Made by a program: the position numbers and the translations under genes. Positions 4,786 to 45,349 of a stretch of 45,349 nucleotides of DNA are shown here, one piece after another. How positions within the stretch are numbered: position 1 is the first letter of the stretch; every line of letters starts with the position of its first letter. Source of the DNA: Escherichia coli (GTDB lineage Bacteria; Pseudomonadota; Gammaproteobacteria; Enterobacterales; Enterobacteriaceae); assembly GCF_003334405.1 (NCBI RefSeq), contig NZ_QOWM01000023.1; one strand, 5' to 3'. The notes under the pieces were generated by a model. It was given only the letters and a program-made list of their open reading frames with translations, was not told where the DNA came from and did no database searches.

Positions 4786-5879
<1,094 letters not shown>

Positions 5880-5983
5880 TTTACATCCCGGTAATGCAAC
5901 AAAAGTTAGAGCTTTTAAACGCTGCTACTATACGCGCGCGATTGAGGTTTGGGAATGAGGGCAAGTTAAGGGAGCGTAAAAAT

Positions 5984-6013
5984 TTATGGGCCTGGAGCGG
6001 CCCATAATTTTTT
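5984..6013. terminator. Bidirectional intrinsic-terminator-like hairpin between ybgE and ybgC
   Basis: TTATGGGCCTGGAGCGGCCCATAA palindrome flanked by an A-run on one side and a T-run on the other. It is placed to terminate the cydAB-cydX-ybgE transcript on the minus strand. Confidence 0.45.
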
Positions 6014-6028
6014 AAAGAGAATTCTGAT

Positions 6029-6322
6029 TTAAAAGAAGAAGAAAATCAGCCCGACAATGAGAACAATATCGGCAAGCAATGGGCAAAAAATCCCTTGCCA
6101 AAGAACCTTCTGCGGACGAAAGCCCACGCCGTGAATCACACCAGCACAGACGGCCCACATCAGCAATAAACCATGCCAGATTTCCAGTTCACTGGTCTTC
6201 GCGGCAAAACGAGATGGGTCCCAAAACATACATCCTGCTAACAGAAGCGCCATCACGAAGGAAAGCGCCCGCAGGGGGCGCTTGTCCATTACCGCATACA
6301 AAGTCGCGATAATCTTACTCAT
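6029..6322 (-). CDS. ybgE: Small inner-membrane protein YbgE (cyd operon)
   Basis: 97 aa, hydrophobic, MSKIIATLYAVMDKRPLRALSFVMALLLAGCMFW. Confidence 0.9.
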   Translation of the reverse strand: MSKIIATLYAVMDKRPLRALSFVMALLLAGCMFWDPSRFAAKTSELEIWHGLLLMWAVCAGVIHGVGFRPQKVLWQGIFCPLLADIVLIVGLIFFFF

Positions 6323-6435
6323 CAGATGTCTTCTTGACCGGCTTTGCCTGATTCGACGTGTTCAAGCGCCAGCGCGGTGATTACCCCAAACGAACAGGCA
6401 AGAAGCGTTCCCAGAATCCATGCGAAATACCACAT
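6322..6435 (-). CDS. cydX: Cytochrome bd-I oxidase accessory subunit CydX (37 aa)
   Basis: Hand translation of the minus strand gives MWYFAWILGTLLACSFGVITALALEHVESGKAGQEDI followed by TGA. Absent from the ORF track because it is under 60 aa. Its stop overlaps the ybgE start, and it starts 11 bp after the cydB stop. Confidence 0.9.
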   Translation of the reverse strand: MWYFAWILGTLLACSFGVITALALEHVESGKAGQEDI

Positions 6436-6449
6436 TTTTAGCTCCTTAC

Positions 6450-7589
6450 TTAGTACAGAGAGTGGGTGTTACGTTCAATATCTTCTTTGGTGATACGACC
6501 GAACATTTTCCAGTAACACCAGGCGGTGTAGAGCAGAATGATCGGTACCAGAACCACCGCAACCCAGGTCATGACGTTAAGCGTCAGCTGGCTGGAAGTT
6601 GCATCCCACATTGTCAGACTTGCGTTCATCATGGTGCTGGACGGCATCACAAACGGGAACATTGCGATACCGGCTGTCAGGATGATGCAGGCCAGCGTCA
6701 GGGAGGAGAACACAAACGCCCACGCGGCTTTATCCATACGTGCAGTCAGGATGGTCAGCAGCGGCAGAACCACACCCAGTGCCGGAATAGCCCACAGAAT
6801 TGGCGTGTTGTTGAAGTTAACCAGCCATGCGCCAGCTTCACGAACCACTTCTTTATTCAGTGGGTTAGAGGCTGCGTAATGGTCCATTGTCGATTTCACG
6901 ACATAACCATCGATACCGTACATCACCCATACGCCAGCCAGTGCGAAACAGACCAGTGTCACCAGCGCAGCCACCTGAGCCGTTGCACGGGTACGCAGGT
7001 GCAGTTCGCCCACGGTACGCATTTGCAGATAGGTTGCGCCCTGAGTAATGATCATCCCTACGCTCACCACGCCTGCCAGCAGGCCGAACGGGTTAAGCAA
7101 CTGGAAGAAGTTACCGGTGTAGTACAGACGCAGATATTCATCAACGTTGAACGGTACGCCCTGCAACAGGTTACCGAACGCTACACCAATTACCAGCGGC
7201 GGAACGAAGCTACCAATGAAGATGCCCCAGTCCCACATGTTACGCCAGCGGGTTTCTTCAATCTTGGAGCGGTAGTCAAAACCGACCGGACGGAAGAACA
7301 AAGACGCCAGCACGAGGATCATCGCCACATAGAAGCCGGAGAACGCAGCGGCATAGACCATCGGCCAGGCAGCAAAGAGTGCGCCGCCCGCGGTGATCAG
7401 CCAAACCTGGTTACCGTCCCAGTGTGGTGCAATGGAGTTAATCATAATTCGACGCTCGGTGTCGTTACGACCGAGGAAACGGGTGAGCATGCCCACCCCC
7501 ATGTCGAAACCGTCAGTGACTGCAAAACCAATCAGCAGAACGCCAACCAGCAGCCACCAGATAAAACGCAATACTTCATAATCGATCAT
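6450..7589 (-). CDS. cydB: Cytochrome bd-I ubiquinol oxidase subunit II
   Basis: 379 aa polytopic membrane protein, MIDYEVLRFIWWLLVGVLLIGFAVTDGFDMGVGML. Confidence 0.96.
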   Translation of the reverse strand: MIDYEVLRFIWWLLVGVLLIGFAVTDGFDMGVGMLTRFLGRNDTERRIMINSIAPHWDGNQVWLITAGGALFAAWPMVYAAAFSGFYVAMILVLASLFFRPVGFDYRSKIEETRWRNMWDWGIFIGSFVPPLVIGVAFGNLLQGVPFNVDEYLRLYYTGNFFQLLNPFGLLAGVVSVGMIITQGATYLQMRTVGELHLRTRATAQVAALVTLVCFALAGVWVMYGIDGYVVKSTMDHYAASNPLNKEVVREAGAWLVNFNNTPILWAIPALGVVLPLLTILTARMDKAAWAFVFSSLTLACIILTAGIAMFPFVMPSSTMMNASLTMWDATSSQLTLNVMTWVAVVLVPIILLYTAWCYWKMFGRITKEDIERNTHSLY

Positions 7590-39796: not shown

Positions 39797-41215
39797 TTAT
39801 TTCCCCTTCCGCGCCGCCTCATACGCTGCCAACGTTTGTACTCTCGCTTCTTTGTGCTCGACTATCGGTTGCGGATAATCCAGCGTCACACCTGCTTTCT
39901 GCGCCCACTTCCACGGCTCATGCACCACTTTCCCTGGCACATCGCGCAGTTCCGGTAGCCACTGGCGGATAAACTCGCCCTCATGATCAAATTTCTCGCC
40001 CTGGGTTGTCGGGTTGAAAATACGAAAATACGGCGCTGCATCGGTTCCGGTTGAAGCGGCCCACTGCCAGCCACCGTTATTGGCTGCCAAATCACCATCA
40101 ATCAGCTGCGACATGAAATATCGCTCGCCTTCGCGCCAGTCGATCAATAAATCTTTCACCAGAAAACTGGCTGTAATCATCCGTAGCCTGTTATGCATCC
40201 AGCCAGTGCTGTTAAGCTGACGCATAGCGGCATCAACAATCGGGTATCCCGTTTTGCCTTCCTGCCAGGCCTGTAAATGTGCGGGATTGCTCTGCCACTG
40301 TACACGATCCGTCCAGGCAATAAATGGACGATGTTTACACAACGAGGGGTGATACGTTATCAGGTGACGGTAAAACTCGCGCCAGATCAGCTCATTAAGC
40401 CAGACACTACCGGCCCCACCGTCCAGCGCCTGCGGCTGTTCAGCCAACAAGCGATGCAAGCACTGGCGAGGCGATAACCCGCCCGTTGCCAGGCTGGCCG
40501 ACAAACGGCTGGTGCCTTCCACTGCCGGAAAATCTCGTTGTTGCTCATATTCTCCGGCACCGTTCTGGCAAAACTGGCGTAATTGCGCAATCGCCGCTTT
40601 TTCTTCCACCGGAAAATGCGCAGTATCGAAAGACTGACGAGGATAATTCAGCGTAATGGATGGCGAGGGCTCTATCGATCCGCTACTACGAACTTTTGGC
40701 GCAGCGACGCACTCCGGCATCCCTTCCCGCAGCCGTTTCAGCCAGGCATTCTTAAAAGGCGTAAAGACTTTGTACATCTCGTGATTACCGGTCATCACCG
40801 CGCCAGGCGGCAGGATCACGCTGTCATCAAATCCTTCACACACCACGTTACGCAGCGCTCTTTCAACTTCCACATCCCGCGCCCGCTCATTCACTTCATA
40901 CTGATAGTTATAAAACAGGTGGGTAACGCTGTTTTCCGCGCACACCTGTTTAACTATTTCGACACTGGCGACAAAGTCATCCACTTCACGGAACAATAAA
41001 GGAATACCTTTTTCCGCAAGCGCTATTTGTAGCCCATTCAGTTGAGCATTGATAAGTTCAGCCTGACGCGGCGACATGTTATGCGTCGCCCACTGGCGTG
41101 GTGTAGCGATATACAACGCCAGCACGCGTGCAGACGAATTGCGGCAGGCGGCAGCCAGTGCGAGATTATCGTGCAGACGTAAATCCTGGCGAAACCAGAC
41201 CAGATGGGTAGTCAT
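39797..41215 (-). CDS. phr: Deoxyribodipyrimidine photolyase
   Basis: 472 aa, MTTHLVWFRQDLRLHDNLALAAACRNSSARVLALYIATPRQW, FAD-binding C-terminal domain. Confidence 0.97.
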   Translation of the reverse strand: MTTHLVWFRQDLRLHDNLALAAACRNSSARVLALYIATPRQWATHNMSPRQAELINAQLNGLQIALAEKGIPLLFREVDDFVASVEIVKQVCAENSVTHLFYNYQYEVNERARDVEVERALRNVVCEGFDDSVILPPGAVMTGNHEMYKVFTPFKNAWLKRLREGMPECVAAPKVRSSGSIEPSPSITLNYPRQSFDTAHFPVEEKAAIAQLRQFCQNGAGEYEQQRDFPAVEGTSRLSASLATGGLSPRQCLHRLLAEQPQALDGGAGSVWLNELIWREFYRHLITYHPSLCKHRPFIAWTDRVQWQSNPAHLQAWQEGKTGYPIVDAAMRQLNSTGWMHNRLRMITASFLVKDLLIDWREGERYFMSQLIDGDLAANNGGWQWAASTGTDAAPYFRIFNPTTQGEKFDHEGEFIRQWLPELRDVPGKVVHEPWKWAQKAGVTLDYPQPIVEHKEARVQTLAAYEAARKGK

Positions 41216-41721
41216 AAAACTCCTGAATGGCGCAAGTTAATCACACGCGGCCAAAGTTCGAAATAACGCTGCCCTGAAAGCCAGGCGTCAGGATAAAGCG
41301 CCATATAGTGTTTGATACGCATCAGCGGCGCAAGAAGTGGTTGCTCGCCACGGCGATAACTGTCGATAAGCGCAGCCAGCTGCTGGCGTTCTGTGGAATC
41401 AATATGCGGGCGAAAATAACCCTGAACGTGCATCAAAACATTGGTGTGATCGCGCGGGTTGGCGGGGTGAGAAAGCAAAACAACTACGCGTTGGCGGTAC
41501 TGGTTGTAATAGTCATCCAGATTTTGCCACTGGTGAATATCAGCCACGAACGGGCCAAGTTTGCGGTACTCCGGCTGAGAATGCGCCAGAAAGACGAGTT
41601 TATAGCGGCTGTGATAATCGAGAAGCGCCCCGCGCGTTAAGCCATGTTCTTTCAGTCGATGTAACTCATGAAGGGCAAAGATACGGATTAGGGTGCTGTC
41701 ATCAAATCGTTGTAGATTCAT
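41212..41721 (-). CDS. ybgA: DUF1722-family protein YbgA
   Basis: 169 aa, MNLQRFDDSTLIRIFALHELHRLKEHGLTRGALLDYHSRYK. Its stop overlaps the phr start (ATGA). Confidence 0.9.
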   Translation of the reverse strand: MNLQRFDDSTLIRIFALHELHRLKEHGLTRGALLDYHSRYKLVFLAHSQPEYRKLGPFVADIHQWQNLDDYYNQYRQRVVVLLSHPANPRDHTNVLMHVQGYFRPHIDSTERQQLAALIDSYRRGEQPLLAPLMRIKHYMALYPDAWLSGQRYFELWPRVINLRHSGVL

Positions 41722-41868
41722 TACTGCTCCTGAGCGGTTTACAGGAGTAAGTGTAGACGTTGAGAAATGATATTTGTGAAGTTAATCCTGTTGTAGCAGG
41801 ACAAATTTACGAAAGCCTGCTCCCCGCAAGGACTGACGTCAGGTAGTTTCTAACCATAGCTGCCCTTT

Positions 41869-42630
41869 CTATTCAAACGTGAAATCAATAAGCTCATCAG
41901 GGACATCGCAAACAATATGAAGACGGGTTTCTTCTCTGCCGTGACTCTTTTCACTAATTGCGTAACTGTCATGCTTGGGATTATTTAATTCTTTCAGCGG
42001 AAATTTTTCCTCGAAGGCTTTATTTAGCCGCCCCTGGTTTCCTTTTACAGCGAATAAATAATCACCTCCCTGTTTTTGTATCTTCTCTGCAATATCTTTC
42101 TGGCAACCCATCGCATCAGTTGTGATGATTTTTCCTTTAATATCCAGCATGTTAAGAAGTTCTGGGATAGCTGTAATCTCATTAGATTTCTCATCCGTCT
42201 TGATCTGTCCGATGACCAGACTGTGCATTGTTGAGAACGCACTAATGACATGAATCGCTCCCCTGCGGCGACTCTTGTCATAAGAGTGCCGGAGCGTTTT
42301 TCCATCAATTGCAATGACGTCTTTATCATCTGAAGAATGGCAGTCACGCATCCAGTTAATAAAGCACTCGTGAAATTTTGCAGGACTGATACAGGATACA
42401 ACTCTGGCAATGGTATCGTGAACAGGAATACCATTTTCAAAATCACCATATTGCTTCAAAAAATCGGGATGTGTTTCCCCAAAATCCTCTATATCTTCCC
42501 AGCCTTCTGCACCAGAAATAACGGCACAAATAGTCAACAGTAGAATATCCGATAACTTATGTTCCATTTTCCAGGCTTGTCTGTAATCGGGGATAATAGA
42601 AATATGTCCCATCAATTTTTTAAGTTCCAT
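41869..42630 (-). mobile_element. ybfD: H-repeat-associated ISAs1-family transposase, N-terminal 253-aa fragment
   Basis: 253-aa [24 protein letters not shown]...[24 protein letters not shown]. Paralogous to the adjacent copy and ends where a full-length ISAs1 transposase would continue, so C-terminally truncated. Confidence 0.85.
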
Positions 42631-42869
42631 TTTGTTCTCCTTAATTATGTAAGGAGTATTTGATCATGTGTAAGCAATAAAAAACAGCTTTAGGTAATAA
42701 GGAATATCTCAATTTTTAAACATAAAATGCGAATTGTTTAGTACAAAAAGTGAACTTCTGATGATCTTTCCCTGTGTTTAACGCAGCCTTCTTTCTTTTC
42801 CTCTTCACCCTTAATGTCTTTGCAATCTCTTAATAAATTCAGTGCCATCTTCTTTATTCCAGATATTAT

Positions 42870-43860
42870 TTAGGCTGCGTTTCCTCTTCTTATCCGGCTG
42901 GCATCTTCATTCATTTTTACATCTAACACCCAATGAAGACTGTGCTCGATCAGCCAGTGCGCTCTGATAGCATGTGCAAATTCTTTAGCATCCATATCCT
43001 TTGATGAAATATAATATCGGATGCTTACACCTTCTGCTGATTTATCTTCTTTCTTCTGCCTGAATGACAATGCTACACAAAGCTTTTTTAATCCCTTCCA
43101 TTCGAATTCAAAATCACAAAAGTTCAGGCGTTACGTTACTGACAATATGCAAACGTGTTTCTTTTCTTCCATGACTTATCTCCTGCGTACTAAACGAATC
43201 GCCTTTATAATTAGAAAACACATTTACAGGAAATTTTTCCTCGAATGCATGATGTAATTTCCCCTGATTGCCTTTTACTGCCAGAAGATAATCTGCTTTT
43301 TTATCTTTGATCTTCGAAGCGATATCTTTCTGACAGCCCATAGCATCAATGGTTATCAAATTTTTCTTTAAATACAGTAGGTTAAGCAACTCTGGAATGG
43401 CTGTAATCTCATTACTTTTGGCTTCCGTTTTCACCTGCCCCAGTACAACACCATTTTCGTTCGAGAATGCACTCACCATATGGATTGCTCCTTTTCTTTT
43501 TCCCTTATCAAAGGAGCCTCTTATGGTCTTTCCATCTATTGCTATAATTTCACCATCAGTGATTTCATGGCACTCCTGCATCCATTCAATAAACATCTTT
43601 TCAAAGGCCAAACTGTCAATGTTACTCACAACGCGTGCAATGGTGTCATCGACCGGAATGCCATTATCAAAATCACCATATTTCTTTAGCCATTCAAGTC
43701 TTTCATGTCCAAAATCTTCAATTTCCTGCCACTCATCGGCACCTGCAATTACTGCACATACGGTGAGAAACAAAATAGCAGATAATTTATGTTTAACCTT
43801 TCCTTGTTGTCGTATATCAGGGGTCACTGAAATATAATCAAGCAAACTTTGAATACTCAC
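42870..43860 (-). pseudogene. ybfL: Frameshifted, C-terminally truncated ISAs1-family (H-repeat) transposase
   Basis: The N-terminal part (43114-43860, 248 aa, MSIQSLLDYISVTPDIRQQGK...) stops at 43114. The continuation (...[65 protein letters not shown]) lies in another frame at 42870-43070 and ends short of the family's usual C-terminus. Confidence 0.8.
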
Positions 43861-44041
43861 CTGGCGTCCTTTTTTATCTTTTTAGTTATTCCAAAGGTTA
43901 AATTTTGATCACCTGTAGGCGTTAAAGCAAAGATGAAAATCGTGATTTACATCACAATTTTCATGATCTTGCCCTGCCCCGTCCCTTGCTCTCATGTCTT
44001 TCTGTATGTATTTTATATTTTTCTCTTTCTGGTGTTGTTCA

Positions 44042-44500
44042 TTATGACCATTTACCAATCCAGTCAAAAACTTCATTTTTCAAATTGTTATCATAATAAT
44101 CAACATCATAATAGTCTCCATAATTAATTATTTTATAACTAGCCTTCTTGTTTTTATCACTAAAATACACCCGTTGTTTTGTAGCGCAGAACTCCATATT
44201 CTCCAGTTTACTAATGTTTTTTAATCGCACGCTATAAAGAATATCATTGAAAAAATTAAGATTTATATCAACCACTCCACAGTGCGTCCTGTAATTATTA
44301 ACCATTATACTTATAAAATGACCATTCCCTCTACTAATTTTTTGGTCATTAATTATTTTATAAATAATATTTTTTTCAGAAAGATATATCTCAACGCTCT
44401 TTGGTGTTTTATGTCCATAAAATACGATGTCAGAATTTGAATTGTTATCAAACCCAAGGTAAACAACAAATAAACAAAGGGTAATTAAAAAAAATGACAA
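44042..44500 (-). CDS. Candidate Rhs-tip immunity protein (AT-rich ORF with N-terminal hydrophobic segment)
   Basis: 152-codon ORF beginning 8 bp after the Rhs-tip stop, with an apparent TTG start (the ORF-track 'M'). Strongly AT-rich with Asn/Ile/Lys/Tyr-rich composition and MSFFLITLCLFVVYLGF at the N-terminus. May correspond to K-12 ybfC; start codon uncertain. Confidence 0.6.
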   Translation of the reverse strand: MSFFLITLCLFVVYLGFDNNSNSDIVFYGHKTPKSVEIYLSEKNIIYKIINDQKISRGNGHFISIMVNNYRTHCGVVDINLNFFNDILYSVRLKNISKLENMEFCATKQRVYFSDKNKKASYKIINYGDYYDVDYYDNNLKNEVFDWIGKWS

Positions 44501-44508
44501 GTTTGCCT

Positions 44509-45349
44509 CTAATAATTTGAAGCATCTGAACTCCCTTGCTTTGCTTTTATTGGATTATCTGCTTTTATACCATCTAACCCGAAGAGTTGCCCAGTGTTAT
44601 ATTTTTCAATACATGCATCGCTACATTTGGCAGAAAAATCGCCACAAGCAATACCGACAGTGTTATTTTTAAGATCCATGATTCTTTCTTTAGCTGGCTG
44701 ACCTTGTCTATCCCCTGCCGCCTCATGATTTTTACCTATCACGTCAGCTATTGTTGATCCAAATGTCTTAGTCATTCGACACATCAAGTAACAATGTCTC
44801 ATTGCATCGGCGGCCCCATTATGAGCTCCGCCAACAATAGCATCCATATCATAACCGAACTGGTAAGCACTGTTAGTAATGCTGTTTGCAGCAATCAATC
44901 CAGGTACACCAGATACGGCATAAATTAGTCCACCTGATGTCATATTCTCAATCGCATCTAACCCCATTGGGTCTATCACTTGTATGGGATTCAACGGATA
45001 CTGATACATATTCCATCCACCTCTCAACCCAATCGGGTCCGGGGTGATATACCGCCCCTGCAACGGATCGTAGTGCCGGTGACGGTTATAGTACAGCCCC
45101 GACTCCTCATCATGCTGCTGCCCTGGCAGACGGTACGGCTGGTGCAGGTGATGCGGGTTCTCCTCATTAAGCTGGTTGCCCCATTCATCATACTCCCCGC
45201 GCCACGCCGTATTGCCGTCTTCGCTGATGAGCGCCAGCGGCAGGCCCCGGTGGTCGCAGTGGTAAAAATGAACTTTTCGCGCCGGTGTGTATTCCGGCTC
45301 CACCTGTCTGGCCAGTTGCTCCACCGTCAGCCCGCACTGCGCAAGCCAC
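44509..45349 (-). CDS. Rhs-family protein C-terminal region (partial; 5' end beyond the window): end of Rhs core plus variable toxin-like tip
   Basis: Reading frame is open to the window edge (...[37 protein letters not shown]...). It contains the core-terminal motif [27 protein letters not shown] (PxxxxDPxGL), then about 149 aa of unrelated AT-rich sequence to the stop at 44509. The ORF-track 'M' at 45324 is an internal GTG. May be K-12 ybfO. Confidence 0.8.

Follow-up and report, generated by a model that had tools for sequence, protein, structure and literature searches.

Two decayed ISAs1-family H-repeats lying head to tail in an Escherichia coli rhs locus next to ybgA

H-repeats (H-rpt, Hinc repeat) were reportedly described by Zhao and colleagues in 1993 in the Rhs elements of Escherichia coli (J Bacteriol 175:2799; cited in PMC3032704). 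Strain K-12 carries such elements downstream of its Rhs tips, as ybfQ-ybfL-ybfD at RhsC and as yncI-ydcC at RhsE. The RhsC series, which occupies the site beside ybgA, consists of three ISEc1-type copies, ybfQ (a fragment), ybfL (with an internal stop) and ybfD. Transposition of H-rpt has not been observed (PMC3032704).

We analysed a window of 45,349 nucleotides of E. coli DNA, the end of which matches the chromosomal side that carries ybgI-dtpD-phr-ybgA, with an rhs element after it. The H-repeats found there, placed between an Rhs toxin cassette and ybgA, belong to the same family as those of K-12, lie at the same position downstream of an Rhs tip and include the same ybfD scar beside ybgA. 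Whereas RhsC of K-12 holds three ISEc1-type copies, the window contains an RhsE-type, ISEc26-like copy (element A) beside a chimeric ybfD (element B), and across 41862-45349 the sequence shares 99.5-99.7% identity with the RhsE locus of K-12-type strains. Such a feature is ordinary and has long been known (H-rpt, ybfD/ybfL/ydcC/yncI), with nothing new in kind; its arrangement is rare. RefSeq names the genes and annotates them as ISAs1 pseudogenes. It is very probable that two dead ISAs1 H-repeats, standing head to tail, were juxtaposed at this locus by an RhsE-type block that recombined into the ybgA-side locus.

Gene order at the rhs locus

Read along the minus strand, the locus begins with the C-terminal portion of an RHS core protein bearing a tip of RhsE type (44509-45349; NF041261 RHS_core, E 6.5e-74; TIGR03696, Rhs_assc_core, E 4.9e-25), whose frame is still open at the window edge (to 45348) and which is 99.7% identical to the K-12 RhsE locus. 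It is followed by ydcD, the gene after the RhsE-type tip (44042-44524; NF050020 YdcD_fam, E 1.5e-61), by the small ORF yncO on the opposite, plus strand (43942-44127; annotation transferred from FELIX_MS771, the K-12-type RhsE locus and O157:H7 strain 4276, 'protein YncO', WP_120795385.1), and by elements A (42775-43976) and B (41797-42774), both on the minus strand. The first core-genome gene past the scar is ybgA (41212-41721, minus strand), which was identified from the ORF list and the annotation of relatives. The gene order on the Rhs side is the same in FELIX_MS771, the K-12-type RhsE locus, O157:H7 strain 4276 and S40.

The initial annotation had located two transposase remnants where an Rhs element ends, beside ybgA-phr, and the RHS core/tip and the YdcD-family gene directly upstream of A, with ybgA beyond B, bear this out. 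The two minus-strand transposase ORFs do lie side by side, but the extent assigned to them, 41869-43860, was too narrow, and the whole scar covers 41797-43976.

Two distinct ISAs1-family remnants

Both elements are ISAs1-family (H-repeat) transposase remnants. The N-terminal transposase ORF of A (43114-43860, minus strand, 248 aa, GTG start) and the ybfD ORF of B (41869-42630, minus strand, 253 aa) matched the NCBIfam ISAs1 transposase equivalog NF033564 with E values of 1.7e-87 (profile positions 1-218) and 4.5e-88 (1-220 of 314), respectively. The frame-shifted continuation of A (42870-43070, minus strand) matched the same profile at positions 240-300 (E 3.4e-23), and all three ORFs scored above its cut-off of 70 bits, far beyond what chance would give. 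Pfam, run on the intact ISEc5 relative, assigned PF13808 to residues 9-94 and PF01609 to residues 102-343; the domain content of the window copies was read by aligning them to the ISEc5 transposase, along which the frame of A is interrupted at codon 247 and that of B at codon 254. Terminal inverted repeats are present at the left end of A, the left end of B and, in degenerate form, the right end of B, and the intact relatives measure 1291 bp (ISEc5) and 1305 bp (ISEc26). No target-site duplications were found around A, B or the four intact relatives (copies of ISEc1, ISEc5 and ISEc26); they could be missing because truncation and recombination would erase them.

A and B had been read as two copies of one insertion sequence at different stages of decay. 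Their identity is 58-59% at the amino acid level and about 67% at the nucleotide level, and they are therefore two distinct members of the family. Alignment with intact ISEc26 and ISEc5 mapped the breakpoints, and the surviving termini, which the initial annotation had left unidentified, are now placed by their inverted repeats.

Element A is 98.85% identical in nucleotide sequence to the intact ISEc26 of E. coli O157:H7 strain 4276 over 42773-44600, and we take it to be the counterpart of the pseudogene yncI at the K-12 RhsE locus. The intact ISEc26 (locus L003, 3903-5207; WP_000027427.1) is bounded by CAGGGCAAGA-type inverted repeats and encodes a transposase of 390 aa, which aligns with the ISEc5 transposase along the latter's full length. 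It shares its left repeat and the neighbouring ydcD and yncO with A and is undamaged, whereas A carries four lesions. Relative to the O157:H7 copy, one extra C at 43122 (+1) shifts the frame at codon 247, which agrees with the frameshift already noted near 43100. A G>T substitution at 42872 creates the nonsense codon at 42870-42872 (E330*), and the continuation at 42870-43070 indeed ends early. When base 43122 was removed in silico, the translation became colinear with ISEc26 up to the stop at codon 330, and 340 of the first 345 residues matched. The remaining two lesions had been missed: a 5-bp deletion at 42811 and a truncation of the 3' end, where homology stops at 42775 and the last 98 bp, including 27 codons and the right repeat, are gone. 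A measures 1202 bp as opposed to the 1305 bp of intact ISEc26.

The left boundary of A was set by its inverted repeat alone (CAGGGCAAGAT, 43966-43976, minus strand), which matches the right repeat of the O157 ISEc26 at 16 of its first 17 positions. Among the E. coli genomes matching a probe for this end, no independent flank was found that would reveal a separate insertion site; in 2443 of the 2467 matching genomes the match continues into ydcD. A partial match in CH427 was considered as an empty site and rejected, since an IS1 interrupts it.

The intact relative of element B is ISEc5 encoding ydcC (378 aa, WP_000421020.1), a 1291-bp element at 5623-6913 of a K-12-type RhsE locus (L002). B, 978 bp long, matches this locus at 6001-6913 and, separately, at 5623-5689; the intervening 311 bp (5690-6000) are missing, with a GC microhomology at the junction (41862/41863), and the deletion is out of frame. 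The ybfD frame closes before it is reached: the TGG codon (W254) of intact copies is TAG at 41869-41871, 8 bases upstream of the deletion junction. The left end of B reads CAGGGAAAGATCA... and carries the left inverted repeat CAGGGAAAGAT (42764-42774, minus strand); it was placed by repeat comparison and by where homology begins in four independent flanking contexts. The right-end remnant of 67 bp (41797-41863, minus strand) retains the final 18 codons with their stop codon, together with a right repeat that has degenerated (ATTTGTCCTG as opposed to the canonical end ATCTTGCCCTG), and is 86.6% identical to the right end of ISEc5. At this same position beside ybgA, strain GZ2408C carries a canonical H-repeat end, which confirms the right terminus of B.

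B keeps both termini, and its description as a 253-aa N-terminal ORF stands; it is, however, no plain fragment, given its internal deletion and surviving right end. YbfD retains the N-terminal PF13808 domain and about 60% to two thirds of the DDE domain. Compared with ISEc5/ISEc1, B has the same left inverted repeat and differs at only 3 sites within its 5' 657 bp; these relatives are intact, whereas B bears W254*, the 311-bp deletion, a degenerate right repeat and a 3' coding part of the native ybfD type. The ybfD stop had been said to fall where the frameshift of A lies. This holds approximately, as codons 247 and 254 stand 7 codons apart in the alignment, but the two are independent lesions of different kind.

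It is thinkable that the 67-bp remnant came from a third, separate H-repeat instead of B, because its identity to ISEc5 is only 86.6%. A comparison made to see whether it belongs to a separate, more divergent element showed that the sequences closest to it are right ends of the ordinary ISEc1 type (GMF065, GZ2408C). A single internal deletion of B is therefore the simpler reading.

In GZ2408C (L005 3973-4100), what remains of an H-repeat next to ybgA is about 50 bp of its right end, closed by the canonical ATCTTGCCCTG terminus, beyond which an island with symE and xerC stands instead of ybfD and the rhs element.

Both elements are predicted to be transposition-incompetent, in line with the initial annotation: A because of its frameshift, nonsense codon, 5-bp deletion and lost right end, and B because the C-terminal third of its DDE domain is missing.

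Distribution and origin of the arrangement

The left repeat of B directly abuts truncated A at 42774/42775, with a 2-bp ambiguity (CA). A 3' tail of A beyond B was found neither in the window (41700-41880) nor downstream of intact ISEc5 at RhsE; in the search for it, only the repeat itself and a chance-level 9-bp match aligned. With B directly abutting A and no piece of A found behind it, the two elements form a head-to-tail scar and not a nested one.

The K-12-type RhsE locus contains the same damaged A with all its lesions and the same A-B junction, but its B is intact (ydcC/ISEc5). We compared the junction across 5426 complete E. coli genomes with three probes. A 100-bp probe across the A-B junction was matched in 2205 genomes, mostly once per genome and normally at the RhsE locus. 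A 163-bp probe spanning the ybfD deletion junction, the right end and the ybgA flank detected the ybfD scar beside ybgA in 3087 genomes, 2726 of them at an identity of at least 99%. The third probe, which requires A, B and ybgA together, found the linked arrangement in three genomes (CEA106S, FELIX_MS771 and S40), at 97.3-98.9% identity.

Variable sites within ybfD divide the gene into two parts. At 41862-42049, the window copy matches every ybfD allele and differs from ydcC/ISEc5 at 10 sites, whereas at 42118-42774 it differs from ydcC/ISEc5 at 3 sites only. Against K-12 ybfD, the listed variable sites include 37 differences in the latter interval; 20 of these fall in 42751-42774, where the K-12 copy is truncated and unaligned. 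The ybfD of the window is a ydcC/ybfD chimera, of ydcC/ISEc5 type at the higher coordinates and of native ybfD type at the lower ones, with the crossover confined to the 68 bp of 42050-42117. In CEA106S, FELIX_MS771 and S40 the crossover points differ from that of the window, which indicates that similar exchanges happened repeatedly.

The K-12 ybfD element, as seen in strain g62 (L007 10001-10025), lacks 24 bp at the very tip of its left end that are still present in the window copy; the third K-12 copy is accordingly truncated at its left terminus.

The chimeric ybfD, with its crossover at 42050-42117, is what leads us to a recombined RhsE-type block. In the proposed sequence of events, the A-B junction would have arisen once, elsewhere, when B inserted into or next to the 3' end of A and the tail of A was lost up to the terminus of B, either by insertion of B and a later deletion or by an IS-mediated adjacent deletion. 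The ybfD deletion scar would have arisen separately beside ybgA. Homologous recombination or gene conversion would then have carried an RhsE-type block, consisting of the Rhs tip, ydcD, yncO, A and the 5' part of B, to the ybgA-side rhs locus, with one crossover inside the H-repeat between 42050 and 42117. A second crossover presumably lies in the Rhs core, beyond the window, and the exchange may have been a gene conversion, a reciprocal exchange or a translocation. We infer both this order of events and the mechanism that removed the tail of A.

The initial annotation favoured a local history, in which B transposed into the 3' end of A at the present locus and later deletions trimmed both elements, leaving a nested scar. 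The position of the left repeat of B exactly at the truncation point of A is the trace expected of an insertion or of an IS-mediated adjacent deletion, and would fit such a course. The identical junction and the identical A lesions, however, are found at RhsE in 2205 genomes and beside ybgA in three only, B is not followed by a tail of A at either locus, and the ybfD of the window is a ydcC/ybfD chimera. We regard successive local insertions and deletions as very improbable on these grounds.

Alternatively, the RhsE-type block could be joined to ybfD-ybgA through an assembly artefact, namely a chimeric contig produced by collapse of H-repeats that are 97-99% identical. The great rarity of the arrangement (3/5426 genomes) and a switch point inside repeated sequence would speak for it, but three independent complete genomes have the same gene order with different crossover points, and S40 has a full RHS gene and ydcD upstream, as in the window. 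An artefact is thus quite improbable, and a recombined RhsE-type block remains our preferred reading.

Two of the three genomes with the linked arrangement show further features around it. In CEA106S (L009 11461-12860), pptA, the usual RhsE neighbour, and a further frameshifted ISAs1 copy lie in the RhsC locus, between ybfC and element A, which suggests that the two rhs loci of that strain underwent a larger exchange. In S40 (L008 12045-19712), which shows the greatest colinearity with the window, the rhs gene before ydcD comes after hcp and vgrG, part of a type VI secretion cluster, whereas K-12 has rhsC-ybfB-ybfC there. The window ends inside the RHS gene, and its locus may be of the S40 type.

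Possible roles of the remnants and neighbouring features

The 253-aa ybfD frame stands open beside ybgA in more than half of the complete E. coli genomes. It could be asked whether YbfD has been domesticated and kept as a truncated transposase acting in trans, either as an inhibitor of ISEc1/ISEc5 transposition or as a DNA-binding regulator; its N-terminal part would then be preserved through recurrent conversion by intact H-repeats, of the kind seen in the window. The ORF and the scar recur at an identity of at least 99% in 2726 genomes, but alleles that share a recent ancestor and are repeatedly converted by intact copies can show such identity as well. Transcripts of ybfD and ydcC were reported to be raised in long-term stationary phase (PMC4032248), where cross-hybridisation between the copies is possible. 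The private substitutions of K-12 ybfD, 10 non-synonymous and 8 synonymous, include fewer non-synonymous changes than strict neutrality predicts; these counts are small and fall between the neutral and the constrained expectation. Pairwise dN/dS, computed to look for selection on ybfD, is 0.1-0.27, which mostly reflects divergence among once-active elements. With an extra internal stop at codon 18 in the S40 allele and the use of the ybfL-ybfD interval as a neutral integration site (PMC7797564) also standing against it, a retained function of YbfD is highly unlikely.

A and B now do nothing but supply about 1 kb of repeated sequence. Their importance beyond annotation is slight, as decayed insertion sequences at an Rhs locus are a textbook case. 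For annotators, the pseudogenes can be bounded at 41797-42774 (B) and 42775-43976 (A). The useful addition is the view of H-repeats as portable homology, here with a breakpoint mapped to 68 bp. H-repeat homology lets a whole Rhs tip cassette and the downstream ydcD move between rhs loci, which fits both the original 'rearrangement hot spot' sense of the name and the accepted displacement of Rhs C-termini.

Two small features upstream of the remnants were also observed. Within ydcD (44494-44524), the window has a run of eight T residues (T8) as opposed to T7 in the K-12 RhsE locus and in strain S40. Read from the canonical ATG (44524), the frame is lost about 12 codons in, and what is left is a TTG-started ORF of 152 aa only (44500-44042). 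The T8 run may be a true frameshift or a homopolymer sequencing error.

Just inside the left repeat of A, a self-inverted BLAST match and folding identified a subterminal hairpin at 43933-43964, with a perfect 14-bp stem, a free energy of -21.9 kcal/mol and a z score of -5.8. The small ORF yncO starts within this hairpin, inside the left end of A, reads outward over the inverted repeat and overlaps ydcD, which lies on the other strand, at the latter's 3' end.
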